Source: a virus. From it: a DNA stretch of 58,670 bases. Positions 1,890 to 54,829 of this stretch are shown piece after piece. How positions within the stretch are numbered: the first letter of the stretch is position 1; every line of letters starts with the position of its first letter. The stretch is taken from the IMG/VR virus record IMGVR_UViG_3300003320_000379, positions 1 through 58,670 of that record; one strand, given 5' to 3'. Both the position numbers and the translations under genes were made by a program. The notes under the pieces were generated by a model, which was not told where the DNA came from, did not search any database, and was given only the letters and a program-made list of their open reading frames with translations.

Positions 1890-1918
1890 ACTTTACCCCC
1901 CACTGGGGGGCGTGTCAA
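1890..1918 (-). promoter_or_regulatory. promoter-like module copy (C6-N3-G6 palindrome in spacer)
   Basis: minus strand TTGACACGCCCCCCAGTGGGGGGTAAAGT; 17-nt spacer; 39-nt leader to ATG 1850. Confidence 0.65.
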
Positions 1919-2261
1919 CACCCGGCATCAGCCGTTCATACGTCTTCCGCATGTGCTTCACCACGCGCGGATCGTCCACGAATAGCCGGTGCCGGTTTGC
2001 CCAGGCCAGACCGTTGGCGCACGTCTTGCACGCGGCCGCCTTGTCGCCGTTGTGCACCACGTTGTCGTCCAGCACGACGTGGCCACGGCGGCACACCGGG
2101 CGGCCCTGGGCGTCGGTCGCCCGCTTCTTGCCGCGCACCGCCAGCACGGGCCGGGTTCGACCGGCCAGCCGCTCCAGCTCCCGAGCGGCGCCGTAGTTGC
2201 CCTCCGCCGCTTCGTCGGCGGCCATCTGCGCGGCCAGCTGGCGCATCTCGCGCGTGATCAT
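1893..2261 (-). CDS. His-Me finger / zinc-binding-loop endonuclease-like protein (122 aa)
   Basis: ATGA overlap with 2258..2614. VCRRGHVVLDDNVVHNGDKAAACKTCANG resembles the zinc-binding loop of homing endonucleases. The C-terminal VDTPPSGG* is encoded by the promoter module, and its TAA lies in the -10. Confidence 0.55.
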   Translation of the reverse strand: MITREMRQLAAQMAADEAAEGNYGAARELERLAGRTRPVLAVRGKKRATDAQGRPVCRRGHVVLDDNVVHNGDKAAACKTCANGLAWANRHRLFVDDPRVVKHMRKTYERLMPGVDTPPSGG

Positions 2262-2614
2262 CGGCGACCCCCGCGCGTCCGCCGCGTGGCCGCCCCGTGC
2301 TCGCCCTTGCGGTGCCACTTGTCCGCGTCCGGGCAGTGCAGGGCGTGGTGGCTGTACAGCCGGACCCCGGCCGCGCGCATTCCGGCTGCCTGCCCGGACG
2401 TCGGCTGGGCCGCCTTCAGCACCTTGTCCGGCGGCTTCATGCCGCGCAGGTAGGGCGGCTGGTGCACGGTGAGCGCCCAGTTACCCTGTTCGTGGACGGC
2501 TTCGGGATCAACATCAAACGGGATGCGCTCGTTGCCGGGGCCGTCCGCCCACACCACCTGGGCCTGGCAATACCGGCAGAGGTTCAGGAACGGGTCCAGC
2601 TTCGCCTCAATCAT
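2258..2614 (-). CDS. hypothetical Cys/His-rich protein (118 aa)
   Basis: ATGA overlap with 2611..2790; MIEAKLDPFLNLCRYCQAQVVW...HHALHCPD. Confidence 0.65.
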   Translation of the reverse strand: MIEAKLDPFLNLCRYCQAQVVWADGPGNERIPFDVDPEAVHEQGNWALTVHQPPYLRGMKPPDKVLKAAQPTSGQAAGMRAAGVRLYSHHALHCPDADKWHRKGEHGAATRRTRGGRR

Positions 2615-2790
2615 CGCGCCACCCCGCAATCCATCTTGTGGCCCCAGCCGCGACGGCGGCCGCAGCCGGGGCAGTTGCCCAGGCCGTGACGGTAGGCGAA
2701 CATCCGGGCGCCCTCGCGCAGCTGCACCCAGCGGTAGACGGCCGTGGCGAACCACATCTCCCGGCGGCTGATCTCTCCCGCGCGCGGCAT
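2611..2790 (-). CDS. hypothetical small protein (59 aa)
   Basis: ATG 2790 shares 1 nt with the upstream TGA; MPRAGEISRREMW...NCPGCGRRRGWGHKMDC. Confidence 0.55.
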   Translation of the reverse strand: MPRAGEISRREMWFATAVYRWVQLREGARMFAYRHGLGNCPGCGRRRGWGHKMDCGVAR

Positions 2791-3254
2791 CAGTACGCCA
2801 CCGCCGTGGGCGTGCGCAGGAAGGTGTCCAGCGTGTCCAGGTGGGAGTCCCGCAGGATGTTCAGCGTGCACAGGGCGGGGAGCACGCCCAGCGCCGCCGT
2901 GAGGAACTGCCGGGGGTCGTCGGTACCGACGAACGGCGCGTCGGTCTGGTACCGGATGCCGTTCGGGTCCTCGGTGGTGCGCGCCCGGTCCTCGTCGGAC
3001 AGGGCCGTCAGGATCACCTGGGGCTCCGTCGTCCGGATCACCGGCGACTGGCCGGACGCGGCCAGCCCGAAGACGCCCGGGGCGTAGGCGAGCACGGCAC
3101 GCGGCATCCGCTCCAGCAGGTTGAAGGCGGCGGGCCGGTCGTCGGCGAAGTGGACGCGGCCGGGCCAGCGTGGCTCCAGCCGGTCGTGGAAGGCGATGGC
3201 GAGGCGCGCCGGGCACTGCGGCCCGGACGCTCCCATCACGATCAGGTCCAGCAT
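2790..3254 (-). CDS. hypothetical protein (154 aa)
   Basis: Track ORF; ATG 3254 after the leader ...GGGAACGACCACCGAGAGGAGAACCCGAAC; 39 nt from module 3294-3322. Confidence 0.7.
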   Translation of the reverse strand: MLDLIVMGASGPQCPARLAIAFHDRLEPRWPGRVHFADDRPAAFNLLERMPRAVLAYAPGVFGLAASGQSPVIRTTEPQVILTALSDEDRARTTEDPNGIRYQTDAPFVGTDDPRQFLTAALGVLPALCTLNILRDSHLDTLDTFLRTPTAVAY

Positions 3255-3293
3255 GTTCGGGTTCTCCTCTCGGTGGTCGTTCCCGAGAGGCAG

Positions 3294-3322
3294 ACTTTAC
3301 CCCCCGATGGGGGGTGTGTCAA
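3294..3322 (-). promoter_or_regulatory. promoter-like module copy
   Basis: minus strand TTGACACACCCCCCATCGGGGGGTAAAGT; 17-nt spacer; 39-nt leader to ATG 3254. Confidence 0.65.
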
Positions 3323-3842
3323 CTACGGTAGGCTGCAGCGGCCGGGCGCGGCGCGTTCTCCCCAGCTCCGCGCCGCGCCCGGTCCTTCGGTGGCGCTCGA
3401 TGTAGAACGCGGCGTCGCGCAGGCGGCGCGGGCTGTCCCCCGACATACCCAGCATGATGTTGCAGGACGGGCAGAGCAGGTCACGCACGGCGCCGCTGTC
3501 GTGGTCGTGGTCCACGAAGATCTTCACCAAGGGCTCCGGGCAGATCCCGCATCGGCCCTCCTGCCTCTTGATCATCTCGTCCAGCTGGGCCCGGTCGATG
3601 CCGTACCGGCGCCGGATGTGCCGGTTGCTCATCCGGTCGCGCTGGCGCTCCTGCGGTAGCAGGCGCTCCCGGTTGTCCCGGCGGTACTGCGCACGCGCGG
3701 CGTTGCGGCACGGTCGGCAGACGGACGCCCGCCCGTTCTTGCCCTTGGCGCGCGGCGGAAAGTCCTCCCAGGGCAGCAGCTGGCCGCAGGCGCCCATGCA
3801 CCTGCGGCCAGTCTCGCTCCACGTCTCCAGGTAAGCTGTCAT
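3297..3842 (-). CDS. endonuclease VII-family (HNH-type) nuclease (181 aa)
   Basis: CGICPEPLVKIFVDHDHDSGAVRDLLCPSCNIMLG matches the T4 endo VII-type motif (C-x2-C...DHDH...C-x2-CN). The C-terminal VDTPPIGG* is encoded by module 3294-3322. Confidence 0.75.
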   Translation of the reverse strand: MTAYLETWSETGRRCMGACGQLLPWEDFPPRAKGKNGRASVCRPCRNAARAQYRRDNRERLLPQERQRDRMSNRHIRRRYGIDRAQLDEMIKRQEGRCGICPEPLVKIFVDHDHDSGAVRDLLCPSCNIMLGMSGDSPRRLRDAAFYIERHRRTGRGAELGRTRRARPLQPTVVDTPPIGG

Positions 3843-3864
3843 ACACTTACCTTACACACACTTC

Positions 3865-6207
3865 TCAGCTGGCCGCCTTCTTCTTCTCCCAGTCGGCGAC
3901 GGCGGCGCAGGCTTCCGCGCGCGATCCCGCGTTGATGTGCTGCTTTCCGGGCCAAGAAACGTCGCCCGTGCTGCACATCTTCTTGGCTGCGTTGACAGCA
4001 GTCGCGATGGCGCGGGACTGGTCCATTCCCTTCTCCTGCAGGTGCTTCGCGATCCGCTTGATGTACTTCGGCAGTCCGCCCGCCTTTTCCACCCAGTTCT
4101 TCTTTTTGAATTCGGCCAGATCTTCGTCCGAAACGGAGAACTCGAATTCCCATTCCAGCAATTCCCGGGCGTCGTCCAGGAAGGTACTCCGCAGGTCGTT
4201 CGCGAAGTCGGCGCGCAGCTCCGCCAGGGCCAGCTCCCGCTGCCCGCGCGCGTCCAGCTCCGCCAGCACGGCAGCCGCCACCTCCTCCACGGTGATCTCT
4301 GGGGTCGTCTTGGACTCGTCCCGGCCGACGACTCCGGCCGCCACGAGCGCCACCGGCACGCCGGACGCAACCCGGGCGCGCGGGATCGGGAAGCCACCGG
4401 AGTTGACCGCCAGCGCGGCCACCAGCTCCAGCCCGCCGTCCATCGGCCGCCAGTCGCCCGACAGCGGCGAGGCGCGCAGTGCCTCCACCTGCTCCGGGGT
4501 GGCCGTCCGCCGGACCACGCCGTGCACCCAGATACCGAACGCGTCCTCCCCGGCGGTCACGTCGGCCACCACGGTGTTGACGTTGTCGTAGAACGCGGCC
4601 GCCTCGCTGGCCGACAGCTTCAGCCCGGCGTGGCCGCCCTCGCCCATCGTGATGTGCCCGGCCGCGACCACCTTCACCTCTCCGGCGTCGTGCGTCCGGA
4701 CGGCGCCCACGTTGAAGTAGCCGTAATCGTGGCGGCTACGCGGCGGCGTGACGCACTGCCCGGCGAACCCGGTGTGGCAGGTGCCCCACCCGGCCAGGTG
4801 CCCGTACACCTCGACGTAGCCGGGGATGCTGGAATCGTCCAGCGTGAGCGGCGTCAGCTCCGCCAGCACCGGGTCCGCGAACGCGTGCGCGGGCGGCAGC
4901 ATGGACTTGACGGTGCCGGACGCGGTCACCGGCGCCTTCAGCGTCTCGAACCCGTTCGGGATACCGGCGGCACACAGGAAGCAGTCGTCCCCCAGCTCCG
5001 CCGCCAGCCACGCCGGGCTGGCCGCCGCCGTGATCGTCTCCTCGTTCGGGATGGCCTCTTCGCCGTCGATCACCACGTAAGCCTGCGCGAACGCGGGGAT
5101 CGGGACCAGGGTGGTGGCCGCGATCTTGCCGCTGGTCATACGGATCTGCTGCGGCCCCTGGGTGCCGTCGTCCTCCGCCGCGTCGCCCCAGACGAACTCC
5201 GCCTCCACATCGGACAGATCGGCTGAATTGCCTGTGAGGTAACGCTTTTTGGCCAGCTTGGCGCCGTTGGACTCCGGGTCCACGAAGCCCTTGCCGCCCC
5301 AGACGAACGTCCCTTCGGGGAACGGCTGCCCGGTTTCCTTGTCGATCAGGATTTCCCCGGTGCGCGGGTCGATCGTCTCGGGGCCGTGGGTGCGCGTCAG
5401 GACGTCCAGGCGGCCGATCACTTCGGCGCCCGCGTGGCCGTCGCCACCCTCGGGGTTGGCGGTCTGGGCGAGGATGGGCAGCGGCAGCGCGCGGTGGGTG
5501 AGCGCGCCGGGCTCGATGAACCGCCGGTCGCTGGTCTCCATTCCTTCCAGGATGATCACGGGGAATGTCACCGGGATGCCGTTGGACTCATCCAGCTTCG
5601 GCACCGGCGCCGTCTCCGCCGGGCTGGTCTCCGCCGGGGCCGTCGCCGTGGCGAACGCCTTCACGTCCTGCTGCGGGCCGCCCGGTGCCGGGCCACCGTA
5701 GCCGGGCGTCAGCTCGAAATCGTGGTTCTCGCCGCCCAGGGCGAGGCGCACACGGTTGAACGTGACCGGGCCGGTGTAGCTCAGCGCGTCCGGCTTGATC
5801 CCGTACCCGGCCGTCACGTGCGGCAGGAACCCGGGGTGCTGCTCCGGCATGTCCGCGCCCAGGTGTTCCTTCGCGCCCATCAGTGCGAAGTCCCGGATCT
5901 CGTCCAGCGCCGGGTGCGGCTGCAGCTGGTAGACCGCGCACGACTCCATGTCACCGTCCGGGCCGCCGTCCGGGTTCCACAGCGCGTGACCCATGATCCG
6001 GGCCTGCACCGGCGGGGTGGCCTGCGCGAACTGCTGCACGTGCTGCTTCAGCGCCGACCGCGTGGCGTCGGAGAGGTTCGAGACGTCGTCCCCGAGGTAG
6101 GCCAGCGTGACGTGCAGCTGGTCCTCCGGGTCACCGCCCGGCACGGCGAGCGCCGCCGGGTCCTCCGGAATGAGGGCGATCATGCCGCCCGTGTGCTGGT
6201 CGGCCAT
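3865..6207 (-). CDS. capsid maturation protease with an N-terminal 2H-phosphoesterase (LigT-like) domain (780 aa)
   Basis: aa 1-170 carry two H-x-T motifs (LHVTLAYLG, LPHVTAGYG). The middle has prohead-protease-like segments (VTFPVIILEGMETSDRRFIEPGAL...HAGAEVIGRL; YGHLAGWGTCHTGFAGQCVTPPRS). The C-terminal KKNWVEKAGGLPKYIKRIAKHL tail is typical of actinophage proteases. It lies directly after the portal gene. Confidence 0.75.
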   Translation of the reverse strand: MADQHTGGMIALIPEDPAALAVPGGDPEDQLHVTLAYLGDDVSNLSDATRSALKQHVQQFAQATPPVQARIMGHALWNPDGGPDGDMESCAVYQLQPHPALDEIRDFALMGAKEHLGADMPEQHPGFLPHVTAGYGIKPDALSYTGPVTFNRVRLALGGENHDFELTPGYGGPAPGGPQQDVKAFATATAPAETSPAETAPVPKLDESNGIPVTFPVIILEGMETSDRRFIEPGALTHRALPLPILAQTANPEGGDGHAGAEVIGRLDVLTRTHGPETIDPRTGEILIDKETGQPFPEGTFVWGGKGFVDPESNGAKLAKKRYLTGNSADLSDVEAEFVWGDAAEDDGTQGPQQIRMTSGKIAATTLVPIPAFAQAYVVIDGEEAIPNEETITAAASPAWLAAELGDDCFLCAAGIPNGFETLKAPVTASGTVKSMLPPAHAFADPVLAELTPLTLDDSSIPGYVEVYGHLAGWGTCHTGFAGQCVTPPRSRHDYGYFNVGAVRTHDAGEVKVVAAGHITMGEGGHAGLKLSASEAAAFYDNVNTVVADVTAGEDAFGIWVHGVVRRTATPEQVEALRASPLSGDWRPMDGGLELVAALAVNSGGFPIPRARVASGVPVALVAAGVVGRDESKTTPEITVEEVAAAVLAELDARGQRELALAELRADFANDLRSTFLDDARELLEWEFEFSVSDEDLAEFKKKNWVEKAGGLPKYIKRIAKHLQEKGMDQSRAIATAVNAAKKMCSTGDVSWPGKQHINAGSRAEACAAVADWEKKKAAS

Positions 6208-8843
6208 TAGCTCGCTCCCTGGTCAATGAATCGCTTGCGCAGCAACGTGATCCGCTCCCGCTGGTCCCTGGTCTGCTGGGCGTCGGTGCCCGAACGGCCC
6301 GCCCGGTCGTCCTCTTCGGCCAGGCGCCGGACTTCCGCCATGCTCGGGGCGTCCTCCGCCAGGCGGTCGGTCAAGGTCTCGCTGTACTGGGGGATGGCCC
6401 ACACCGGCAGGGCGTCGCACGCGCAGCCCCGGTGGTCGCCGGGCCGGTACGTGGCGCCCACCCAGGCGTAGCGCGGCTCCGGCACCAGGCGCGGGTCCGC
6501 CCAGCTGCCGAAGCGCTCGCCGTCCAGCTCCTGGTGGGGGTGGAAGTGGTTGCGCGGAGTGACGCCGTACACCCACTCAAACCCCAGCTGTTCCGCGCCT
6601 TCCGCCGCCAGCACGTCGGTGACTTCCTGCCCCAGCGCCAGGCCGCCAACGGGCGCGCCACCGGCGGCCGGGGTGCCGTCGTCGGCCACTCCGCCGGACT
6701 CCGCGCCCGGTCCGCCCAGCAGCGCGAGGGCGCCGCGCACGAGCCCGACCGGCACCAGGTTGCCCGCCGTGTACTCGCCGGGCTCCGCGTCCGGCTCCGG
6801 GTTGTACAGGCGCTTCTCCGCCAGCCGGGTGAGCGCTGACAGCAGGAACTGCCAGGCCGCGCCGCGCCGCTCCGTGAGGCCGTCCTGCAGCCGCTTGGCG
6901 ACGCGCTGGCCGCGCCGGGTGTCCGGCTTCAGCCGCAGCATCCGCAGCACCACGGAGACCACGCCCGCGATGGCCGAATCGGTCCACTGGGTGAAGCGCT
7001 CTTCCAGGCCGCCGAAGGCGTCGGCCAGCAGCTCGTGTTCCTGTACGCCCAGCGCCAGCACCGCGTCCCGGCCCAGGGTCTGGCCGACGGCGAGCGCGTG
7101 CACGCCCTGCAGGCTGGCGGCCACCTTCCGGTCCTTCTGGGCCTTGGACTTGATCCGGGCGCCCGCCTTCTCCAGCGCGCGCTCCATGGCCGCGTCGGCG
7201 GCGTGCTGGATCTGCTCCCGTAGCGCGCGGTCCAGGTCCAGCAGAGCCCGGCCGCCGCGCTCGTCCACCGTCCACTCCGGGCCCCGGTCGGCGGCGGCCA
7301 CGAGCGCCTGGACGAGCCGGACGGCATTCTGGTTGACCGGCGGCGGCGGGGCGCCGTTGTCCGGCGGAGCCTGACCGGGCGCGGTGATCTGGTCCTGCCC
7401 TTCCTGCGGCTGGTCGCCACGCTGGGACGGCACGGAGACCGGGTCCGGCTTCTCCTCCGGCAGGTACTTGTCCCCGCCGAACAGGGCCGCGATCAACAGC
7501 CCGGCGGTGTTGGTGTCCACGCCGATCTTGAACGCGGCCATCCGCAGCACCTCTTCGTCGCTGGGTGCGTCGGATTCGTTGAAGCCCAGCGCGCGCCGCA
7601 GCGTGTCGTAGCCGATGGCGCCACGGTCGTACGCGTCCTTGGCGTCCTGGCCACGGTTCGGGTTCTCCGTGATGTTGCCCGCGTCGTACCAGACCTGAAC
7701 GGTTTTCACGTCGGCTTCGCTGAATCCGCGCGCCAGCAGGGCGGGGCGCAGGAATCCCTCCGTGAGGGAATCAGCGATGATCCGGACGGCCGGGTCAATG
7801 TGGTAGCGGTAGGTGGACGCGTCGATTTGCCAGGCGCTCCAGTGATTCGACTGGCCCAGCCCGGACACGATTTCCGGTGGAATGTCGAGCCCGCGCGCGA
7901 GGCGTTCCAGGCCCTTGTCAATCCGGCCGATGATCTCGGAGGATGTCTCGCGGTCCAGCCGGATGTGCCGGACTTCCTTCAGCTCGTCCTTCGGGCCCCG
8001 GATGACGGCGGGCGCCACCTGGCCGGGCTCGCCCTCATTCGAGATCGGGGCGGTAAGCACGGCCGCCAGATCGGCCATGAACCGGTCGTCGCTCACCAGC
8101 TGCGGGTTGTCGCGCAGCTGCGTCAACAGCGTGAGGGTGTCGGGGACCAGCAGGATGCCGTTCGTGGCGACGCGGGAGCGACTGACCACGCGCAGCTCCT
8201 GGCTGGCCAGCACGATCTCTTCGCACACGTTCAGCAGGCTGCGCATCGGCGAGTCCGCCAGCAGCTTGTACCTGGGGTGGGGAATCCACAGCCGCAGCAT
8301 CTCTTCGCGGGAGGGGTCGATCACGCGGTAGGCGGCTTCGCCGTAGGGGCGGATCGTGATCCGGCCGTCGGCGCCGGGGCGCACCTCCGAAACGGAGTGC
8401 ACCTCCCACTTCTCCTCGCCGTCCTCCTCGTACCCGTGCAGCCACGCTTCGCCGGTGACGCCGAAGTTCTCGTCCAGCACGCCCAGGAAGCTGAACCCGG
8501 CCGACAGTGGCAGGCGGTCCAGCTCTTCCTGCGCGGCCTTGGCCAGCGCCTGCTTGACCGTCACGCCCTTGTCGGCGGTGAGCGGCAGCGGCTCGTCCTC
8601 GTCCGGGACGACCTGCGCGGCCAGGAATTTCACGCGGGCCACGGCGCGGGACCGGAACTGCAGGCCGAAGCGCAGCTCCCCGATCATGTCCCGGTAGCCC
8701 CACGCGTCGTCCTGCCAGTCCTGGCGGGCGGCGGACAGGGTCCGGATGGTGTGGCTGGCGGCGGTGTCCATCCGCATCCCGGATGCCACCATGGTGCGGC
8801 GCTTCCGGTCGCCCTTCGTCGCCGTCCTACCGAACAGCCCCAC
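6207..8843 (-). CDS. portal protein fused to a MuF-like (SPP1 gp7-type) head morphogenesis domain (878 aa)
   Basis: The N-terminal ~480 aa are portal-like (DDAWGYRDMIGELRF..., SNHWSAWQIDASTYRYHIDP). The C-terminus is FEWVYGVTPRNHFHPHQELDGERF...PGDHRGCACD (MuF-type). GTG 8843 follows a GAGAGGTGGTG RBS. Confidence 0.85.
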   Translation of the reverse strand: MGLFGRTATKGDRKRRTMVASGMRMDTAASHTIRTLSAARQDWQDDAWGYRDMIGELRFGLQFRSRAVARVKFLAAQVVPDEDEPLPLTADKGVTVKQALAKAAQEELDRLPLSAGFSFLGVLDENFGVTGEAWLHGYEEDGEEKWEVHSVSEVRPGADGRITIRPYGEAAYRVIDPSREEMLRLWIPHPRYKLLADSPMRSLLNVCEEIVLASQELRVVSRSRVATNGILLVPDTLTLLTQLRDNPQLVSDDRFMADLAAVLTAPISNEGEPGQVAPAVIRGPKDELKEVRHIRLDRETSSEIIGRIDKGLERLARGLDIPPEIVSGLGQSNHWSAWQIDASTYRYHIDPAVRIIADSLTEGFLRPALLARGFSEADVKTVQVWYDAGNITENPNRGQDAKDAYDRGAIGYDTLRRALGFNESDAPSDEEVLRMAAFKIGVDTNTAGLLIAALFGGDKYLPEEKPDPVSVPSQRGDQPQEGQDQITAPGQAPPDNGAPPPPVNQNAVRLVQALVAAADRGPEWTVDERGGRALLDLDRALREQIQHAADAAMERALEKAGARIKSKAQKDRKVAASLQGVHALAVGQTLGRDAVLALGVQEHELLADAFGGLEERFTQWTDSAIAGVVSVVLRMLRLKPDTRRGQRVAKRLQDGLTERRGAAWQFLLSALTRLAEKRLYNPEPDAEPGEYTAGNLVPVGLVRGALALLGGPGAESGGVADDGTPAAGGAPVGGLALGQEVTDVLAAEGAEQLGFEWVYGVTPRNHFHPHQELDGERFGSWADPRLVPEPRYAWVGATYRPGDHRGCACDALPVWAIPQYSETLTDRLAEDAPSMAEVRRLAEEDDRAGRSGTDAQQTRDQRERITLLRKRFIDQGAS

Positions 8844-11608: not shown

Positions 11609-11637
11609 AATCTACCCCCCAGTGGGGGGTGTGTCAA
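11609..11637 (-). promoter_or_regulatory. promoter-like module copy
   Basis: minus strand TTGACACACCCCCCACTGGGGGGTAGATT; the upstream gene's TGA lies inside the TTGACA. Confidence 0.65.
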
Positions 11638-11834
11638 GCCCCGAGCTGCCAGACCCGCCCGACCACCACGCCCGCGTGGCAGAACCGGCAGATCAGCATG
11701 GGCACGCTCTGCAGTGGCTCCCCGCGCACTGGCACCGGACGCACGGCGAGGCCCGGCAGCCCGCACTCCCCGCACGGCAGGTTGCCGGACGGGCGCCCGC
11801 CCGCCGGGGTCCGCTTCGTGTACTGGTTGACCAT
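11634..11834 (-). CDS. small zinc-ribbon-like protein (66 aa)
   Basis: CGEC...CRFC Cys pairs; ATG 11834 after GGAAAGGACACCG. Confidence 0.6.
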   Translation of the reverse strand: MVNQYTKRTPAGGRPSGNLPCGECGLPGLAVRPVPVRGEPLQSVPMLICRFCHAGVVVGRVWQLGA

Positions 11835-11856
11835 CGGTGTCCTTTCCGGACGACAG

Positions 11857-11885
11857 CGGGGGCGGCCCGCGTGGACCGCCCCCGG
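11857..11885 (-). terminator. GC-rich hairpin (9-bp stem)
   Basis: cgggggcgg / ccgcccccg after the TAG at 11893. Confidence 0.4.
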
Positions 11886-11892
11886 TTGGTGA

Positions 11893-12480
11893 CTAGTTGT
11901 CGAACACGAGCGGCGCCCAGGGCGGCAGCTCCGTGTCCACGATCTTCACGTCGTTGGCCTTCAGGCGGCTCACGAGCGGCACCACGGCAGCCCGGCAGTT
12001 CACCGCGCCGGAGAGGCCCGTCCCGCCGCCCACGATCTTGACCTCTGCACGCACCTCCGCCGTGCCGACCTTGAAGCCCTTGGCCCGCATGTTCTTGACG
12101 AAGGTGGCCTGCTTGGTAGCGCGGGACTCGTTCAGGAACCGCTTGCCGAACTTCTCCGCCGCCGCGTCGTTCAGCACCCAGTACGGCCCGTACTGGCCCC
12201 ACTTGTAATGGGTGCTGGCGATCTCGCCCGTCTCCGCGTCCAGCAACACCGGGACGGTGGTCAGGCCGCGCGCCTTGCACAGCTCCACGGCCGCGCCGTC
12301 GGCGTCCCCACCCAGGCGGCTGGCCCACTGGGACAGGAAGCCGTCGGTGTCGCAGCGCTCGAATGACTCGTGGGCCCGGTCGTACTCGGCCTTCATGCTG
12401 GCCTGCAGCTCTTCGGCGAGGGCATCCCACTCAGCGTCGGTGCGGTCGGTGTTCCAGTTCACGGAGGCGTAGGTGGCCAT
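11893..12480 (-). CDS. hypothetical protein (195 aa)
   Basis: ATG 12480 after the leader ...CAGGAACAACCGCAAGGGAGAACCGGAC; 40 nt from module 12521-12550. Confidence 0.7.
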   Translation of the reverse strand: MATYASVNWNTDRTDAEWDALAEELQASMKAEYDRAHESFERCDTDGFLSQWASRLGGDADGAAVELCKARGLTTVPVLLDAETGEIASTHYKWGQYGPYWVLNDAAAEKFGKRFLNESRATKQATFVKNMRAKGFKVGTAEVRAEVKIVGGGTGLSGAVNCRAAVVPLVSRLKANDVKIVDTELPPWAPLVFDN

Positions 12481-12520: not shown

Positions 12521-12550
12521 ACTCTACCCCTCGCTGGGGGGTAGAGTCAA
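12521..12550 (-). promoter_or_regulatory. promoter-like module copy, extended-palindrome variant
   Basis: minus strand TTGACTCTACCCCCCAGCGAGGGGTAGAGT; the arms extend to ACTCTACCCC / GGGGTAGAGT, so TAGAGT reads on both strands. Confidence 0.6.
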
Positions 12551-23682: not shown

Positions 23683-23701
23683 CCCTCCGCCGGGGGGCCG
23701 A

Positions 23702-29211: not shown

Positions 29212-29241
29212 ACGATACCCCCCAGTGGGGGGTGAAGTCAA
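29212..29241 (-). promoter_or_regulatory. promoter-like module copy
   Basis: minus strand TTGACTTCACCCCCCACTGGGGGGTATCGT; sits directly after hairpin 29255-29290. Confidence 0.6.
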
Positions 29242-33301: not shown

Positions 33302-33333
33302 ACTCTACCCCCTGGCGCGGGGTTTCCTGTCAG
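33302..33333 (-). promoter_or_regulatory. degenerate promoter-like module, leaderless class
   Basis: minus strand CTGACAGGAAACCCCGCGCCAGGGGGTAGAGT, then CGCAGC, then ATG 33295; the upstream gene's TGA lies inside the CTGACA. Confidence 0.45.
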
Positions 33334-35912: not shown

Positions 35913-35914
35913 GC

Positions 35915-37707: not shown

Positions 37708-37738
37708 AATAATCCCCTCTCTGGGGGGTGTAGCGCAA
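37708..37738 (-). promoter_or_regulatory. degenerate promoter-like module, leaderless class
   Basis: minus strand TTGCGCTACACCCCCCAGAGAGGGGATTATT, then GGGGC, then ATG. Confidence 0.4.
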
Positions 37739-40420: not shown

Positions 40421-40449
40421 ACTTTACCCCCCAGTGGGGGGTGTGTCAA
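40421..40449 (-). promoter_or_regulatory. promoter-like module copy (exact consensus)
   Basis: minus strand TTGACACACCCCCCACTGGGGGGTAAAGT; follows the double hairpin 40463-40526. Confidence 0.65.
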
Positions 40450-43194: not shown

Positions 43195-43548
43195 TCAGTA
43201 CTCGCCGGTCTCCGCGTAGCGGCGGAGCCCGTCTTCCAGTACGGCCGTCATGCTTGCCCCGGACGACCGCAGCCGTTCCTTGACAATGTCGTGCTCTTCC
43301 GGCCAGGTCCGGAAGCGGATGCGGCGGCGCTTGGTGCCCGGCGGACGTTCGGCCGGGTGCGCGGGCTCCGTCGGGTTGCCGTCCGCGTCCACCAACGGGG
43401 TGGCGTTCTCGCTGGCGCGCTGCAGAATGGCCTTGGCCACCTGGGGCAGTTCCTGCACCAGGCGCTCCGCGCGCAGCTCAGCAGCCCGGACCACGGTGGC
43501 GTCGATCATGAATTCGGCCTGCCGCTTCTTCTTGGTCGCTTCGGTCAT
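43195..43548 (-). CDS. ribbon-helix-helix-like protein, first gene of the leftward transcription series (117 aa)
   Basis: C-terminal RRIRFRTWPEEHDIVKERLRSSGASMTAVLEDGLRRYA fits a beta-alpha-alpha RHH pattern; GAGAGGAGG RBS. Confidence 0.45.
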   Translation of the reverse strand: MTEATKKKRQAEFMIDATVVRAAELRAERLVQELPQVAKAILQRASENATPLVDADGNPTEPAHPAERPPGTKRRRIRFRTWPEEHDIVKERLRSSGASMTAVLEDGLRRYAETGEY

Positions 43549-43570: not shown

Positions 43571-43599
43571 ACTTTACCCCTCGCCGGGGGGAAAGTAAA
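43571..43599. promoter_or_regulatory. symmetric module copy at the only strand switch; candidate face-to-face bidirectional promoter
   Basis: The minus strand reads TTTACT-N17-TAAAGT with a 22-nt leader to ATG 43548. The plus strand reads TTTACC-N17-TAAACT, then GGAGAG, then GTG 43608. Confidence 0.5.
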
Positions 43600-49064: not shown

Positions 49065-49988
49065 CTACCTCCAGGTGGGGCGCCACGTGGCGCAGAGCTG
49101 TGCATTGACGTCGAACGCGCCGGACGTTGCGCGCCAACGGATCGTATTGTCCCCGGGGTGGATCGCGAACGGGCGGCCCGCGATCCGGTACGTGGACGGG
49201 GTGATGATGCCGGTTCGCGCGTCGATCGTGACTGTCTGCCCGGCCGCGATGGTGGACGTCACCACGAAGCCTTCGCCGGTGATCTCGTTCGTGATCACCG
49301 GGAAGTCCACGGGGCCGGTGATCGTGTAGATCGGCCAGGCGTCGATATCCCCGATGTTGGTGGCGTTCAGGTAGCCGCCCGGGTTGGTGAACGCGCCGTA
49401 GTTGAAGTTGAACGTTTTGTTGTACGTGCGCCCGCTGATCGACCCGGCGGGCAGCCCGGCACATGCCTGCTGCGCGCCGCCCACGCCCAGCTTCCACGGC
49501 GGGTTCGCGGCCACCAGCGAGAAGCTGAACTCCGTCGCCACCCCGCCGCGCTGGTCGCCCATCACCGGCGTGGCCTTGAACGAGCCCTGAGCGCGGCACA
49601 CCATGCCCATCCGGACGCCCACGCCGAAGTCGTGCTGTTCCCACACCACGGTCGTCCTGGGGCCCAGCAGGCGCCGGATCTGCGCGATCCGCTGGCGGAG
49701 CACGGCCGCGTTCGGCGCGACCATGGCGCCCTTGATCGGCAGCACGCGCGGAGCGACCGACTGCGGGCCGGACATGCCGCCGTCCCGGCCGCCCGCCTGG
49801 TCGATCGGGGTAATGAAGTCGATCCCCTCCCAGCCTTCCGGCTCCGCTGCCACGATGTGCGTACCGTCGTCCAGCGTGGTGTTGAACCACACGTCGTCCA
49901 TGTCGCCCACCAGATCGGGCCCCATGCGGTACATGCCTTCCAACGGCACCGTGGGCAGGTGCGCGTAGATGTTGAGCGCCGCCGTCAT
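49065..49988 (-). CDS. distal tail protein (Dit-like) (307 aa)
   Basis: ATGA overlap with the tape measure stop, the conserved position of Dit in siphoviruses. Confidence 0.6.
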   Translation of the reverse strand: MTAALNIYAHLPTVPLEGMYRMGPDLVGDMDDVWFNTTLDDGTHIVAAEPEGWEGIDFITPIDQAGGRDGGMSGPQSVAPRVLPIKGAMVAPNAAVLRQRIAQIRRLLGPRTTVVWEQHDFGVGVRMGMVCRAQGSFKATPVMGDQRGGVATEFSFSLVAANPPWKLGVGGAQQACAGLPAGSISGRTYNKTFNFNYGAFTNPGGYLNATNIGDIDAWPIYTITGPVDFPVITNEITGEGFVVTSTIAAGQTVTIDARTGIITPSTYRIAGRPFAIHPGDNTIRWRATSGAFDVNAQLCATWRPTWR

Positions 49989-52768
49989 ACCGAGACCCCC
50001 GCGATCAGCCCGTCGTTGACTCCGACCTGGACGCCCTGGCGCTGCACCGGCAGGCTGCTGGCTCCGGCCGCGAGATCGGTTCCACCGCGCCGCAGCACTT
50101 CGTCCGCGAACTGCCGGACGTCGGTCCCCGGCAGCATGAAGTTGTTCTGCGTGATCGACGCCGGGGAGACGGTGCTGCCGCCGCCGGTGGTGGCCTGCAC
50201 CGCGTTGGCGTCGGGGATGTTCAGGCGGACGCCGTTGGTGACGGTATCCGCCAGCGACAGGGCCGCCTTGCTCACGCTGGGGGTGATCTGCTCCATGCCC
50301 TTGATCAGGCCCTGGCCGACGAACACGCCGATCTTGGCCATTTCCTTGGACGGCGAGGAGATGCCCAGGGCGCCCTTGATGCCGCCCAGGATCTTCTTGC
50401 CCACGTCCACCACGGAGCTGATCACGGAGCTGATCATGGAGCTAATGCCCTTGATCAGGCCGCGCAGTAGGTCGGCGCCCGCGTTGAACAGCAGGCTGGC
50501 GAAGTCGCCGATGGCGCCTAGGATCTTGCCCGGCAGACCGGACACAAAGGACACTGCCGACGACACGCCCGACGACACCGCGTTCACGATGTTGTTAAAC
50601 GCGGTGCGCACGGCGTTCACCGCGTTATTGAATCCGGTCGTGATGAAGTTCTTCACGTTGTTCACCGCATTTGAAATCGATCCGGTGATCGATCCCCAGA
50701 CATTTGTCACTGCGGTAAGCAAACCGGAGAAGATTGTGGTCACGGTGTTTACCACACCGGAAATGATGGTGAGCACGAAATTCATCGTGCTGCCCACAAT
50801 TGTGTTCAGCGTGCCGAACGCATTAAACAGCGGCGTCAGCGCATTTGCGATAAACGCGATAAACGTAGCCGCCAGCTGGACCACCAGCGCGATGATCGGC
50901 GCCAGGATCTGAATCAGGGTCACGATCGGCGGCAGCAGCGGGAGGAAAGCCTGCACGAGTGCCAGCACGGCCGTGACGAGCGGGCCGACGGCGGGCAGCA
51001 GCGCGCTGAAGATCTGGACGATCGCGTTACCCAGGGCGCCCGCGATCGGAGCGAGCGCGGCACCCAGCTGAGCGAAGGCGTCACTGATCACGGGCAGTAG
51101 CGGAGCCATCGCGTTGAGCACGTTCTGGATGAGCGTGGTGAACGGCGGCACGAGCGCCTGGACGATGGAGATCAGCGGCTGCAGCACCGCCAGCGCCAGC
51201 TGGATCAACGGCGGCAGCAGCGGGGCCACCGCCACAAGCACGTCACCGAACAGCTTCGCCAGCTGGCCGATCACCGGCACCAGCGGGGGGATCGCCTGGG
51301 CGAGCACGCCAGCGAAGACCTGCGCCACGTTCGCGATGATCGGGCCCAGGGTGGCCATCACCTGGCCCAGTGCGCCGCCCAGCACGGCGACCAGCTGGCC
51401 GACGGCGGGGAGCACGGGGGCCAGCGACTGGATCAGCGCGGCGAAGCCCTGCCCGAGTGCCGCGATCCCGGGCTGAGCGGCCTGCAGGGCGACGCCCAGC
51501 GCCTGAACGACCGGCAGCAGCGCGGGGCCGATCGTGGACGCCAGGTTCGCGATGATCGGCACGAGCGTGGTACCGACCACCTGGGCGAGCGCGAGGACCA
51601 CCGGCAGCACGGCGCTGATTACCTGCTGCATGGAGACGAAGAATGTGTTGATCGCCTGGCTGCCCGCCGCGCTGCTAGTGAAGTCGCGGATGGCGCCGGT
51701 GATCTGGATCAGGTTGTTCAGGAACCCGCCGCCGGAGTTGGTGCCCGCGTCCATCAAGTCCTTGATGATCCCGAAGACGTTCCCGGCCACCTCCCCCAGC
51801 TGCTTCAGGGTGTTGATGCCGGTCTGGATGAAGTCGGCCAGGGCGCCGGACTCGCGCGCGTTGCTCACGAACTGGGCGAACTTGTCGGTCACGGCGGAGA
51901 AACCGTTCGCCAGTCCTGGCAGGAACTGGGAGCCCACGGTGCCCACGTCGGTGAGTACCGACAGGATGGAGGTCAGCGAGGGCGCCAGCGCGGCCACGGT
52001 GCGCTGGACGTTCTGGAAGATCGTTCCGACGTCGGAGACGGTCTGGCTGCTCTGGAAGAACCGGCCGACGCCCACGGCGGCGGTGTTCAACTCGCCCGCA
52101 ATGCCCGTGAAGCCGCTGCGCAGGACCGGCAGGTACTTGGCGCCCAGGTCCCCGACCGTCTTCCCGAGGTTGCGGAAGAGCGCGTCCTGGGTGGCCAACT
52201 GCAGCCGGTCGAACTCGGGCTTGATCGCGGCCACGGACTTGACGAACTCGCGCGCGTTCGGGCTCAAGTCCTTCAGGGACTCCGCGAACTTCTGGGCGTC
52301 GCCGGACGCCAGCGCCTTGAAGCTGTCGCCGATCCCTTGCGTGGCCAGCTTGATCGTGGTGGACACGGCGAGGAACGCGGCGAACGCAGCCGGTAGCAGC
52401 GCGGCCGCGCCTGCCGCGTTCTGGATCACGCCGATCAGCTGGAAGACGCCGTTGGTCAACGCCGACACCCCGGCCAGCGCCACGCCTGCCTTGGCGCCCA
52501 GCAGCGCGATTCCGGCGCCGCCCTGCAGCAGCGCACCCAGCTTGCTGGCGAACCCCTGCCCCAGGCTCGTCAGGCGCCCGAAGAGGCCCGAGAAGCGGGA
52601 CTCCACCTTCTTGGTGGAGTTGTCGGCTTCCTTGTCCAGGTCCGGCAGCAGGCCGCCCCCAGCGGACGCTTCCTTGGCCGCCGCCTGGAACGCGCGTTTG
52701 ATGGAGGCGCCCAGGCGCGAACCCTCGACGGTCAGGCGTACCGATGCCTCACCGATGACGCGCGCCAC
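49985..52768 (-). CDS. tape measure protein (927 aa)
   Basis: Longest ORF after the chaperones; Ala/Gly/Leu-rich repetitive helical sequence; GGGAGGGG RBS. Confidence 0.85.
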   Translation of the reverse strand: MARVIGEASVRLTVEGSRLGASIKRAFQAAAKEASAGGGLLPDLDKEADNSTKKVESRFSGLFGRLTSLGQGFASKLGALLQGGAGIALLGAKAGVALAGVSALTNGVFQLIGVIQNAAGAAALLPAAFAAFLAVSTTIKLATQGIGDSFKALASGDAQKFAESLKDLSPNAREFVKSVAAIKPEFDRLQLATQDALFRNLGKTVGDLGAKYLPVLRSGFTGIAGELNTAAVGVGRFFQSSQTVSDVGTIFQNVQRTVAALAPSLTSILSVLTDVGTVGSQFLPGLANGFSAVTDKFAQFVSNARESGALADFIQTGINTLKQLGEVAGNVFGIIKDLMDAGTNSGGGFLNNLIQITGAIRDFTSSAAGSQAINTFFVSMQQVISAVLPVVLALAQVVGTTLVPIIANLASTIGPALLPVVQALGVALQAAQPGIAALGQGFAALIQSLAPVLPAVGQLVAVLGGALGQVMATLGPIIANVAQVFAGVLAQAIPPLVPVIGQLAKLFGDVLVAVAPLLPPLIQLALAVLQPLISIVQALVPPFTTLIQNVLNAMAPLLPVISDAFAQLGAALAPIAGALGNAIVQIFSALLPAVGPLVTAVLALVQAFLPLLPPIVTLIQILAPIIALVVQLAATFIAFIANALTPLFNAFGTLNTIVGSTMNFVLTIISGVVNTVTTIFSGLLTAVTNVWGSITGSISNAVNNVKNFITTGFNNAVNAVRTAFNNIVNAVSSGVSSAVSFVSGLPGKILGAIGDFASLLFNAGADLLRGLIKGISSMISSVISSVVDVGKKILGGIKGALGISSPSKEMAKIGVFVGQGLIKGMEQITPSVSKAALSLADTVTNGVRLNIPDANAVQATTGGGSTVSPASITQNNFMLPGTDVRQFADEVLRRGGTDLAAGASSLPVQRQGVQVGVNDGLIAGVSV
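50414..50449 (-). repeat. 3 x 12-nt in-frame tandem repeat inside the tape measure gene
   Basis: ggagctgatcac ggagctgatcat ggagctaatgcc, encoding ...ISSMISSVISSV... Confidence 0.8.
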
Positions 52769-53584: not shown

Positions 53585-53606
53585 GTTGTGCCCCTTCGGT
53601 TTGCGG

Positions 53607-54029
53607 TCAGAACCCGGCAGCCAGCGGCAGGCTGCGGGTCAGGAAGAACGTACCCTGCGTGCCCGGGTGGCGGACGCGGCGGCGGAACACCGTCTGTCCA
53701 TTCCAGACGAAGCGCAGGGTCTTGCGGCGGCGGGCCACGATGATGTGCGGCGCCGTGCCGTCGTGCTCGAACATGGTGTACCGCATCCGCGCGCGCCCGG
53801 CCGCCACCTCGACGGCGGGCAGGCGGCGCCACTGGGTGGCGTTGCGCCGGATGGTGGCCAGCAGGGTGCCGGTGCGGACGCGGACGCGCTGCTCCGCGCC
53901 CACCTGGACCTTGAACATGCGGCGGTCCAGCTCTTGCGGCAGGCCGCTCTCGTAGCTGTTCAGCCACAGGTAAGGCTCACCTGGGTAAAGGGTCACCTTG
54001 ACCTGGTCCAGCTTCAGCTTCAGCGTCAT
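53607..54029 (-). CDS. HK97 gp10-like head-tail joining / tail completion protein (140 aa)
   Basis: ATGA overlap with 54026..54562; ...TGTLLATIRR...FEHDGTAPHIIVARRRKTLRF...VRHPGTQGTFFLTRSL matches the gp10-family pattern. Confidence 0.55.
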   Translation of the reverse strand: MTLKLKLDQVKVTLYPGEPYLWLNSYESGLPQELDRRMFKVQVGAEQRVRVRTGTLLATIRRNATQWRRLPAVEVAAGRARMRYTMFEHDGTAPHIIVARRRKTLRFVWNGQTVFRRRVRHPGTQGTFFLTRSLPLAAGF

Positions 54030-54562
54030 ACCAGCCTCATCGCGGTCACGGCCACGGTGGCTTCGTTCGCGTGGTAGCCGCCCTCCGGGCCCAGCGAGGA
54101 CGTGAGTCCCGCCTGCACGGTGGAGCCCGGCGGCAGGCCCTTGGCCAGCTGGCTGCACATGATCACCACGGCATCGCTCAGCAGCCCCGCATCCCTCATG
54201 CTCTGCGCGCCCGCCGCGTCGATCTGCTCCGCCGGTGGGTACGCGGCGTTGCCGTTCTCCGGCACGGTCGGCGTGCAGCGCACCAGCTGAATGCTGAAGA
54301 TGGCGTGCCGGACGTTGAACGCGGAGACCGGGCCGCCCTGGCGCGGGCTCTGCACGGGGGCGTCCGGCGCCGGGCCGATCCCAATCCCGGTCAGGGCCAC
54401 GAACAGCTGCTCACAGTCCCAGGCGATCAGCTGCGGGTTGCCCGGCGCGATGAAACGGCGGTCCGGCAGCTCCTGGCCTTGGTCCGCGAAGTGCTGCTCT
54501 ACCCCGTCCAGGAACAGCCGCGCCAGCTCCAGGACGGACAGGGCCATCGGCGGGGTGGTCAC
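54026..54562 (-). CDS. head-tail connector component (178 aa)
   Basis: Track ORF between the adaptor and the gp10-like gene; function assigned from position only. Confidence 0.45.
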   Translation of the reverse strand: MTTPPMALSVLELARLFLDGVEQHFADQGQELPDRRFIAPGNPQLIAWDCEQLFVALTGIGIGPAPDAPVQSPRQGGPVSAFNVRHAIFSIQLVRCTPTVPENGNAAYPPAEQIDAAGAQSMRDAGLLSDAVVIMCSQLAKGLPPGSTVQAGLTSSLGPEGGYHANEATVAVTAMRLV

Positions 54563-54795
54563 GCTTCCCCGCGCATCTCCGCCAGCGCGCGCTCCAGCTC
54601 GTCATCATCGGCCGTTGCGTCGTCCGCCGGTGTCTCCGGCTGCGCGGTGGTCTCCGGCGTCTCCTGGGGCGTCTCAGCGGGCGTCTGCGTCTCCGCCTCG
54701 CCCTCCGTCTTCGGGGAGTCTTCCCGCACCGGCTCGACGGCGGCGGGCGGCTGCACGGCGGCGCCTGGCCGCCAGGGGTCCTGGCTGAACGACAT
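54559..54795 (-). CDS. acidic, low-complexity small protein (78 aa)
   Basis: ATG 54795 lies 6 nt after a -10-like TATCGT; MSFSQDPWRPG..., then a Glu/Thr/Pro-rich sequence. Confidence 0.5.
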   Translation of the reverse strand: MSFSQDPWRPGAAVQPPAAVEPVREDSPKTEGEAETQTPAETPQETPETTAQPETPADDATADDDELERALAEMRGEA

Positions 54796-54801
54796 GGAGT
54801 G

Positions 54802-54829
54802 ACGATACCACCCAGTGGGGGGCATTCAC
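54802..54829 (-). promoter_or_regulatory. degenerate module copy inside the connector genes, leaderless class
   Basis: minus strand GTGAATGCCCCCCACTGGGTGGTATCGT, then CACTCC, then ATG. Confidence 0.3.

Follow-up and report, generated by a model that had tools for sequence, protein, structure and literature searches.

Short inverted repeats between genes have been described in several groups of actinobacteriophages. The Cluster O mycobacteriophages carry 34 copies of a 17-bp palindrome, TGTTCGGNNNCCGAACA (PMC4351075), and the Microbacterium phages of Cluster EG carry 8-10 copies of an 18-bp inverted repeat, GATCAACCNNGGTTGATC (PMC7302621). Here the whole 58,670-nt stretch of IMG/VR virus record IMGVR_UViG_3300003320_000379, hereafter the window, was analyzed. 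Its source is an uncultivated soil actinophage, and its minus strand carries many copies of a promoter-like module in which the spacer between the -35 and -10 hexamers is filled by a C6-N3-G6 dyad (six C, three variable bases, six G). The Cluster O and EG repeats resemble this module in being present in many copies, having a 2-3 bp centre, lying in short intergenic gaps just upstream of start codons and being conserved across cluster members despite divergent flanks; no function has been settled for them (PMC4351075, PMC7302621). The window likewise has many short intergenic inverted repeats near starts, each a 15-bp dyad with a 3-bp centre. On the other hand, the Cluster O and EG repeats were described apart from the predicted SigA-like promoters, whereas the dyad of the window is built into every promoter spacer, and its arms are pure C and G tracts that differ in sequence from the arms of both cluster repeats. 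When 39 kb of the window was compared by megablast with 50,697 phage records, there was no match, either to Clusters O and EG or to any other DNA-level relative.

Clusters EC and EI carry 5-12 copies of an 18-30 bp motif, located 22-30 bp upstream of start codons; phages of this type are lytic and circularly permuted, with genomes of 53-56 kb, about 69-70% G+C and many small open reading frames (ORFs) between terminase and portal (PMC7302621). The genome plan of the window is similar, and the conserved leader behind its modules plays a comparable start-associated role, as in the start-associated sequences (SAS) and extended SAS (ESAS) of Clusters K and EF. However, the EC and EI motifs are not sigma-70-like and these phages encode their own sigma factor, whereas neither a sigma factor nor an RNA polymerase was found among the window proteins by profile searches. 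MementoMori had no TTGAC-N17-TAnnnT site in 50 kb.

For repeated promoters described in actinophages, our literature search gave the Cluster O and Microbacterium papers alone, and it gave no paper on C6-N3-G6 strings of the module kind. Repeated intergenic motifs of actinophages are already known and operators in promoter spacers are classical, so that nothing is overturned by the present case. New are the dyad of pure G/C tracts and its fusion with the promoter in each of the copies, together with the conserved leader and the resemblance to CsoR operators.

A repeated promoter-like module and its leader

The initial annotation had listed at least 24 copies of a 29-bp module. The described sequence was present on the minus strand at all 24 coordinates, but the copies were of unequal quality, with 19 complete, three partial (32547, 33302 and 37708) and two doubtful (45771 and 54802). 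A complete module consists of a TTGACA-like -35, a 17-19 nt spacer with C6-N3-G6, and a TAnnnT -10. The copies are given below and are named by their first coordinate; bit scores refer to a 30-nt weight matrix.

1890..1918, minus strand: complete, TTGACA-CG-C6-AGT-G6-TAAAGT, 17-nt spacer, 43.8 bits; conserved leader, 39 nt to the ATG at 1850; ortholog in the relative L128
3294..3322, minus strand: complete, TTGACA-CA-C6-ATC-G6-TAAAGT, 17-nt spacer, 44.4 bits
11609..11637, minus strand: complete, 17-nt spacer, -10 TAGATT, 43.9 bits
12521..12550, minus strand: complete, 18-nt spacer, extended palindrome GACTCTA-C6-AGC-GAGGGG-TAGAGTt with one arm mismatch, 35.1 bits
13696..13726, minus strand: complete, 19-nt spacer, TTGACG-GACA-C6-ACC-G6-TATAGT, 30.0 bits
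14273..14302, minus strand: complete, 18-nt spacer, -10 CAAACT (CATACT in orthologs), 33.4 bits
14571..14599, minus strand: complete, 17-nt spacer, -35 TAGACA, canonical leader, 43.2 bits
15523..15552, minus strand: complete, 18-nt spacer, -10 CAAACT, in-frame ATG 6 nt after the -10, 40.6 bits
17743..17771, minus strand: complete, 17-nt spacer, 44.8 bits
18760..18788, minus strand: complete, 17-nt spacer, -10 TAGGTT, followed by the conserved stretch 17996-18759 without a called gene, 35.2 bits
20309..20337, minus strand: complete, 17-nt spacer, TTGACA-TG-C6-ACT-G6-TATTGT, 43.3 bits
22219..22247, minus strand: complete, 17-nt spacer, 29-nt core identical to that of copy 20309, 43.3 bits
23654..23682, minus strand: complete, 17-nt spacer, second palindrome abutting the -35, 45.0 bits
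24013..24042, minus strand: complete, 18-nt spacer, extended palindrome with 13-bp arms, GACTCTACCCCTC-ACT-GGGGGGTAGAGTC, 37.5 bits
26176..26205, minus strand: complete, 18-nt spacer, -10 TAATCT, 41.4 bits
28647..28676, minus strand: complete, 18-nt spacer, arm variant CCCCGC (kept in the ortholog), 30.4 bits; a different leader of 53 nt, then a 404-aa gene without an assigned function
29212..29241, minus strand: complete, 18-nt spacer, -10 TATCGT, 37.9 bits
32547..32575, minus strand: partial, no -35, ACCCC-GGC-AGGGGG-TAGACT, 14.1 bits; ATG 6 nt after the -10, in the gene immediately upstream of the large terminase gene
33302..33330, minus strand: partial, no -35, CCCC-GCGCCA-GGGGG-TAGAGT; ATG 6 nt after the -10
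37708..37736, minus strand: partial, no -35, C6-AGA-GAGGGG-ATTATT; ATG 5 nt after the hexamer, before an IstB/DnaC-like gene
40421..40449, minus strand: complete, identical to the consensus TTGACA-CA-C6-ACT-G6-TAAAGT, 48.6 bits; in the replication/recombination region, downstream of the gene for single-stranded DNA-binding protein (SSB)
43571..43599, minus strand: complete, -35 TTTACT, arm variant GAGGGG, 32.8 bits
45771..45799, minus strand: doubtful, CCCCC-ATCCC-GGGGGG-TATGTA, no -35 and no valid TAnnnT, below 12 bits
54802..54830, minus strand: doubtful, C6-ACT-GGGTGG-TATCGT in the tail-gene region, no -35, 16.0 bits

The repeat was confirmed and greatly exceeds chance. Allowing one mismatch, CCCCCCNNNGGGGGG (C6-N3-G6) occurred 23 times against 1.63 expected, and the maximum in 100 shuffles was 7. 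The weight matrix gave 19 minus-strand matches of at least 30 bits and none above 12 bits in 50 shuffled genomes, a test that is partly circular because the matrix was trained on the same module copies. An independent scan for the sigma-70 consensus over 11-30 kb found 11 sites against 0.4 expected, and module copies accounted for ten of the 11.

The dyad spans 15 bp, is centred near -20 and fills the spacer, with its G-tract abutting the -10. The spacer, claimed to be 17-18 nt, is 17 nt in 11 complete copies and 18 nt in seven, but 19 nt in one. The -35 reads TTGACA in 12 complete copies, TTGACT in three, TTGACG in two, and TAGACA and TTTACT in one each; the -10 is CAAACT, not TAnnnT, in two copies of the window (14273 and 15523). 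The module also exceeds 29 bp, as most complete copies run on into a conserved leader of about 37-45 nt with a ribosome-binding site. This leader reads tcATCAGGAACAACGAC..A(G/C)GGAG(A/G)ACC..ATG, also written ATCAGGAACAACGAC..AGGGAGAACC, and ends at the start codon. Copy 23654 has a second G/C palindrome, an imperfect one, at 23683-23697 (minus strand CCCCCCGGCGGAGGG), which abuts its -35 on the upstream side and may be a tandem site.

All copies lie on the gene strand at gene boundaries, in line with the annotation, and fifteen of them do fall in the small-gene block at 11.6-29.3 kb. A position 0-20 nt after the upstream stop codon, on the other hand, was not general. The upstream stop may lie within the -10, within the -35 or up to 114 nt upstream, and it lies 482 nt before copy 43571. 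In copies 11609, 15523, 17743 and 26176 the upstream gene takes its stop codon from the TGA within TTGACA, while in copies 1890 and 3294 the upstream gene stops at the TAA of the -10 TAAAGT. The latter two genes, which are unrelated and one of which is for Endonuclease VII, read through the whole module (1893-1919 and 3297-3323), and both proteins end in VDTPP(S/I)GG, encoded by GTTGACAC-C6-N3-G6-TAA; the palindrome of copy 3294 encodes the Endonuclease VII C-terminus ..DTPPIGG. The distance from the -10 to the start codon, which had been given as 5-53 nt throughout, is 35-53 nt in 16 of the 19 complete copies, 22 nt in copy 43571 and 6 nt in copy 15523, where the mRNA would be leaderless; it is 5-6 nt in the partial copies 32547, 33302 and 37708, and copy 18760 is followed by about 760 nt without a called gene.

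The module copies are very probably promoters. Comparison with relatives strongly supports this reading through the consensus hexamers and spacer, the co-orientation, the conservation of the -10 and the leaderless geometry, which is kept. The comparison was made with IMGVR_UViG_3300044658_000094, a relative of 55.7 kb with about 70-90% nucleotide identity in the shared parts and modules at syntenic positions. Across 17 orthologous module pairs the identity was 0.98 for C6, 0.97 for G6 and 0.95 for the -10, and it was 0.51 for N3 and 0.46 for the upstream flank. In copies 15523, 32547, 33302 and 37708 the hexamer is followed by an ATG at 5-6 nt. Transcription initiated at the usual spacing would begin at this point and yield a leaderless mRNA. 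Leaderless mRNAs are common in Actinobacteria. For copy 15523 this geometry is conserved in L128, L093, L095, L034 and L055. Moreover, among 91 distinct related modules the spacer was 17 nt in 52, 18 nt in 37 and 19 nt in two, and the G-tract always touched the -10. The position of the dyad is therefore fixed relative to the -10, which ties it to initiation and not to an RNA. Host RNA polymerase of the SigA/sigma-70 type would probably start 6-8 nt after each TAnnnT, and the modules would form a 19-copy expression cassette of near-consensus promoter and mostly short leader with a ribosome-binding site, together with a few leaderless mRNAs. Most non-structural genes would then be driven from the approximately 19 module copies.

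More distant relatives were collected with the portal protein (40-67% identity). They carry many copies of a consensus promoter with a conserved leader, in which the spacer holds other dyads, namely C5-N7-G5, CCCAC-N-GTGGG (N7-9), ACACCC-N9-GGGTGT and gGTGTTGACACCCACCG-N-GGGnG. On this comparison the predicted multi-copy promoter-leader cassette is a trait of the whole group and the dyad is lineage-specific. Keeping promoter and leader while the spacer dyad differs by lineage fits an operator that co-evolves with its binder. In one set of portal relatives at 40-43% identity (L134, L135, L140, L142 and L132), gGTGTTGACACCCACCG-N6-8-GGGnG-TAnnGT was present in 9-11 copies per 22 kb with a conserved leader of its own, tcttcttgtcag..agaacagcccc.aggag. 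Conservation in this group extends upstream of the -35 as a small GGTGT/ACACC palindrome centred on the hexamer.

The spacer dyad as a possible shared operator

What the palindrome does is a separate question from whether the modules are promoters. Tentatively, and a little short of calling it probable, we read the palindrome as a shared operator, most likely recognized by a tandem ribbon-helix-helix (RHH) protein of the phage itself. A dyad-symmetric protein on C6-N3-G6 would block polymerase at all copies at once, and early and middle gene units would thereby be shut off, or timed, together. The candidate gene is the following.

43195..43548, minus strand: tandem-RHH gene, 117 aa, candidate palindrome binder

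This gene is the first in the early operon, so the RHH protein would also repress itself. Its promoter, copy 43571, lies 22 nt upstream and belongs to a longer palindrome, TACTTT-C6-N3-GAGGGG-T-AAAGTA. The late operon ends in a hairpin-rich region, and copy 43571 is the first promoter beyond it. In five relatives the RHH gene promoter also carries an extended palindrome, (G)TTTACTTT-C5-6-N3-5-G4-6-TAAAGT(A). By analogy, such an extended palindrome before the RHH gene would be the usual look of an autoregulated repressor. The annotation had proposed that one DNA-binding factor gates many transcription units, and the sequences are consistent with this, as the arms are conserved like the -10 and the RHH gene stands behind an extended palindrome copy.

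An AlphaFold model of the RHH protein, built with 11 homologs, had a pLDDT of 86 and a pTM of 0.78 and showed two beta-alpha-alpha units in one chain (strand 9-16 with helices 17-29 and 34-47; strand 74-81 with helices 83-95 and 100-114). The nearest folds in the Protein Data Bank (PDB) were chains of the F-plasmid relaxosome (probability 0.97-1.0, TM 0.55-0.6), presumably TraY, together with VirC2 and AvtR, a regulator from an archaeal virus. By sequence the match was weak (NikA-like, E 0.013). The second beta-strand, RRRIRFRT, places on one face four arginines that are invariant in homologs of at least 60% identity, and a homolog of 42% identity has RKRMRFRM, in which the arginines are kept. 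We infer that such an arginine ladder suits guanine tracts. Searches of PHROGs and Pfam with the most conserved small proteins gave no informative matches to other regulators.

Behaviour of the arms is informative as well. In the 91 related modules, one symmetric position is changed about as often in the left arm (C-to-T) as in the right (G-to-A), and the arm variants thus appear to behave as variants of a dyad at the DNA level. The 15-bp core was found as exact reverse complements in two orthologous sets, at window positions 43577-43591 (CCCCCCGGCGAGGGG) against L208 (CCCCTCGCCGGGGGG), and at window positions 12527-12541 and in L094 (CCCCCCAGTGAGGGG) against L128, L022 and L052 (CCCCTCACTGGGGGG). 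Cores inverted between orthologs mean that core orientation is tolerated. Such inversion in place is what template switching, or recombination of one short inverted arm with the other, would leave behind.

Several known systems offer precedents. The RHH repressor Arc of phage P22, acting at Pant, binds an operator situated in the -35/-10 spacer and slows open-complex formation. Arc, TraY, VirC2 and AvtR share the RHH fold with the candidate, and the nearest structural matches are single-chain double-RHH proteins. Compared with Arc, the phage would spread one operator type over about 19 promoters; the candidate, a putative binder, has 8-13% identity to solved structures. The stoperators of Cluster A phages, bound by L5 gp71, are about 30 repressor sites in short intergenic gaps, oriented with transcription, that silence the genome as a whole. 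They are asymmetric 13-bp sites, mostly outside promoters, in temperate phages with a known repressor, whereas in the window no integrase or classical repressor was found. A G/C-tract palindrome between the -35 and -10 has served as a repressor operator (PMC10318464), and the autoregulated promoters of the CsoR family indicate that a dyad of such kind in such a position works as a repressor operator in nature.

A number of observations weigh against the operator reading. Among 57 perfect cores of the window and its relatives, N3 is purine-N-pyrimidine (R-N-Y) in all 57, and its centre base on the coding strand is C in 38 and G in 7, a strand bias that a symmetric protein would not impose. Positions 1 and 3 of N3 are complementary in 46 of the 57, more than independent half-sites predict, which hints at homogenization of the palindrome at the DNA level instead of protein readout. 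Together with the core inversions, this complementarity means that template switching could keep the symmetry without selection. No explanation covers the R-N-Y centre, the complementarity of the outer bases and the bias of the middle base together. The polarity of C on the left and G on the right is the same in all lineages and could reflect a preference of polymerase. Near-consensus promoters need no activator. As profile searches of the window proteins recognized neither an integrase nor a classical repressor, the purpose of a global repressor is itself inferred. Moreover, the link to the RHH protein rests on where its gene lies, on the fold and on the palindromic promoter of the gene. Homologs of the RHH protein (12 clusters at 60% identity or more and one at 42%) were found only in lineages with C/G-tract dyads; scans based on Erf and on motifs missed the early regions of the other lineages.

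If the operator reading is true, the phage carries an unusually clean natural regulon: some 19 copies of one promoter, leader and operator, naturally graded by arm symmetry (perfect or imperfect), spacer length (17 or 18 nt) and the presence or absence of a leader. It would bear on how a lytic actinophage times its early genes, on the role of the intergenic palindromes of Clusters O, EG, EC and EI, open since 2015, and on whether arginine-ladder RHH proteins or CsoR-type proteins read G/C-tract dyads. The modules would also be ready-made parts for high-G+C hosts, being a strong promoter and leader with an embedded operator.

Other explanations of the palindrome

The composite TTGAC-N3-4-C6-N3-G6-TA was scanned in public collections, and this gave an unexpected link to the CsoR family of repressors. 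The 185,579 species genomes (596 Gb) gave 17 single matches, none in Actinobacteria, and 100 metagenome stretches matched. With single-copy matches alone in the genome scan, a regulon of this composite in a host genome was rejected. The matches fell into two main classes, about 25 high-G+C fragments related to the phage with the same leader, and low-G+C contigs with a small gene downstream. By a profile built from ten such genes, a CsoR-like gene stands immediately downstream of the composite in 40 metagenome and genome loci, and two of these genes match PF02583, the family of metal-sensitive repressors, at E 1e-19 and 1e-27. The layout of the CsoR-linked sites is TTGACAAA-C6-N3-G6-TAnnnT, and in many of them the -10 is separated from the ATG by a mere 6-13 nt. 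Such loci include L006, L007, L010, L012, L013 and L017-L019, and about 30 metagenome loci such as L036, L050 and L066; the carriers are members of the candidate phyla radiation, some Gammaproteobacteria and many low-G+C metagenome contigs. Outside the phage group, the composite thus appears to be mainly the autoregulated promoter of CsoR/RcnR-family repressor genes, a link absent from the initial annotation, and the design with an operator-filled spacer before such genes is widespread and apparently autoregulated.

The palindrome of the phage could accordingly be an operator for a CsoR/RcnR (DUF156) sensor-repressor of the host, or its approximately 19 sites could titrate that repressor. We regard this as unlikely. 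CsoR family operators are G/C-tract pseudo-palindromes with tracts of at least 4 that overlap the core promoter (PMC10318464), and the C6-N3-G6 of the phage is such a sequence. The M. tuberculosis CsoR site GTAGCCCACCCCCAGTGGGGTGGGATAC overlaps the -35 and -10 (PMC10318464, PMC10601412), and both it and the S. lividans operator ATATACCCCTNAGGGGTATAT are, like the phage dyad, G/C-tract pseudo-palindromes over or between these hexamers. The identical composite directly before CsoR-like genes in the 40 loci favors the host sensor, as do the G-tract-TA found on the right of all phage copies with a T-initial -10, and the reading ACCCCCTAAGGGGGTA of some copies in a relative. However, the CsoR sites of Streptomyces resemble TACCCCCTAGGGGTA and depend on a TAC/GTA dyad, TAC-X9-GTA (PMC3902906). 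In the phage cores the right GTA is present, as it overlaps the -10, and the left TAC is found in 6 of the 57 perfect cores, most of which have CAC, and the spacing would be TAC-X13-GTA, 4 bp longer. The R-N-Y centre of the phage also differs, as CsoR-linked sites often start N3 with T. The phage also departs from the CsoR 'type 2' operators in its approximately 19 copies and its lack of a DUF156 gene. No such gene was found in 2336 ORFs of the window and its relatives with the 10-protein CsoR profile, nor among the small proteins by Pfam, and a CsoR-like protein encoded by the phage was rejected. The binder would therefore have to be that of the host, and the linked examples come from low-G+C organisms and none from Actinobacteria. 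Keeping a host repressor site on every promoter would also need a special rationale. Slightly less likely again is the full form of this idea, in which a stress-sensor operator of the host CsoR/RcnR type is placed within every one of about 19 promoters of a lytic phage that has no repressor of its own. If it were true, a host metal-sensor regulon would be carried by a virus; the phage would read the copper, nickel, sulfide or aldehyde status of the host to time its gene expression, and in turn the sensor would be titrated by replicating phage genomes, with de-repression of efflux genes in the host.

A second possibility, in our judgement a doubtful one, is that no trans-acting factor is involved. 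The C-tract and G-tract would tune promoter strength or DNA geometry, and the palindromy would be kept by template switching. This would account for the C-rich side by the -35 and G-rich side by the -10, seen in all lineages despite different spacing and sequence, and for the strand bias of the centre base; template switching at a quasi-palindrome typically leaves core inversions and an excess complementarity like that of N3 positions 1 and 3. The geometry of G-tracts, which is A-like and under-twisted, also counts in favor of tuning. To our knowledge, no actinobacterial promoter element of this kind is known, which counts against it. G-tract geometry is also discussed in PMC3902906. However, 12 of the 17 spacer positions are as invariant as the -10, far more so than known spacer effects require, and contact with polymerase does not need symmetry. 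Moreover, the single-copy occurrence of the composite in 596 Gb of genomes, never in Actinobacteria, indicates that it is not a general feature of host promoters.

Thirdly, the dyad could act as an RNA hairpin in read-through transcripts, as a leaky terminator, a processing site or a 3'-end stabilizer, with the promoter position a mere effect of compaction. This too is improbable, and the leaky terminator of the initial annotation was not supported. The predicted hairpin is stable: CCCCCCACUGGGGGG gave -11.1 kcal/mol (6-bp stem, 3-nt loop), the hairpin formed in four of four folded contexts, and copy 24013, with its 13-bp stem and T-rich tail, is the only copy whose full palindrome passes a terminator-like scan. 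Two compensated arm variants were present in relatives (CCCCCT-GTG-AGGGGG and CCCCTC-CT-GAGGGG), and intergenic space is tight, with stop codons within the -35 or -10. However, the stem is followed by UAAAGU or another TAnnnT and not by a U-tract, and terminator-like sites over 11-30 kb numbered 13 against 8.6 +/- 3.4 expected, which is no enrichment. The commonest variants among the 91 related modules were GAGGGG, a C-A mismatch in RNA, and CCCCTC, a G-U pair, and the two were about equally frequent, so that arm variants break pairing as often as they keep it; most are uncompensated and conserved in orthologs. Inversion of the core between orthologs turns a G-U pair into a C-A mismatch. Positions 1 and 3 of N3 are complementary yet cannot pair around a 1-nt loop, and the invariant register to the -10 is not required by a role in RNA.

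Very unlikely, and the weakest of the accounts with positive evidence, is that the repeats of about 70 bp serve primarily as homology boundaries for the exchange of small-gene cassettes between phages. Three segments (11634-12480, 14321-14533 and 23702-23977) are missing from the close relative and have modules as their exact boundaries, several breakpoints of the alignment coincide with module edges (11637, 12472, 15555, 20274, 22180, 23686 and 23979), and neighboring small genes range from 35% to 96% identity. The recombination boundaries suggested earlier are thus seen, as a by-product, but they do not explain the conservation of the palindrome. Any conserved 70-bp repeat would act as an exchange site, which makes exchange a consequence and not the reason. 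The promoter consensus, the fixed dyad and the leaderless geometry are left unexplained, and the replaced genes at 14915-15109 and 19214-19614 are not bounded by modules.

A hairpin promoter of the N4 type, which has a 5-7 bp stem and 3-nt loop and is read by a giant phage-encoded virion RNA polymerase, was rejected, as the stem and loop sizes fit but no polymerase-like protein was found and a canonical -35 and -10 flank the hairpin.

Genome context and neighboring features

The window is a complete-looking siphovirus genome of 58.7 kb and 70% G+C, and it is probably the whole genome of an uncultivated phage, circularly permuted or arbitrarily opened. A codon-usage gene call gave about 100 genes, all but one on the minus strand. 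Profile matches identified the following genes.

3865-6207, minus strand: MuF/protease-like fusion
6207-8843, minus strand: portal
30223-32055, minus strand: large terminase
41810-43180, minus strand: Erf recombinase
49985-52768, minus strand: tape measure, 927 aa, the largest protein of the window
55676-56572, minus strand: major tail protein
57482-58630, minus strand: major head protein

Further profile matches were to a minor tail protein, SSB, an IstB/DnaC-like loader, Endonuclease VII and an HNH nuclease. The megablast search of phage records gave no close cultured relative, and protein-level relatives alone were found, at 28-37% identity.

About 55 small genes lie between the large terminase and portal genes (8857-30226), nearly all without a Pfam or PHROG match. 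This block is highly mosaic between close relatives, with identities from 35% to 96% and several genes replaced. A layout with small genes from terminase to portal is common to Gordonia phage Clawz and the Microbacterium Cluster EC phages (PMC7302621). Among cultured phages, Clawz gave the best terminase and portal matches or nearly so (about 30-34% identity), and it has about 38 small genes between these two genes. In that block of Clawz (L027), at 2859, 5487 and 15588, three copies of TTGCAC-N17/18-TATACT were seen with a conserved leader, GAGGTTACACAAAGAGAACAAG...AAGGAGG; a description of this cassette was not found in the literature examined. In contrast to the window, Clawz has three copies alone, a different spacer sequence and no C6-N3-G6.

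The only gene on the other strand lies next to the RHH gene.

43608-43979, plus strand: lone plus-strand gene, 123 aa, with an HNH-like motif (C-E-x-x-G, D-x-H-H, N, H-N), kept in four relatives

This gene was considered as a divergent repressor and rejected, since it is HNH nuclease-like by motif; it had no Pfam match. It and the RHH gene diverge across a 59-nt gap that is nearly all palindromic module, and the near-perfect 35-bp palindrome between them could serve both directions.

Directly behind copy 18760, about 760 nt of the minus strand (17996-18759) are conserved although no gene was called there, and this stretch is probably a promoter-driven non-coding RNA. ARAGORN found no tRNA or tmRNA in the repeat or in this stretch, and Rfam gave none at gathering thresholds, the lone match being a T-arm fragment of tmRNA (E 0.001, 14.7 bits). 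The tRNA, tmRNA and Rfam families were rejected on these grounds as an explanation of either. A tRNA-like element of 121 nt makes up the 3' part of the stretch (about 18153-18273); it combines a segment resembling a D-arm with a long variable region and a T-arm, AGGGGTTCAAATCCCCT. Its terminal helix covaries in relatives, being GGTGAAG/CTTCACC in the window, GGTAGAGGGGCC/GGCCCCTCTACC in L128 and GGTGGAGGGG/CCCCTCCACC in L116.

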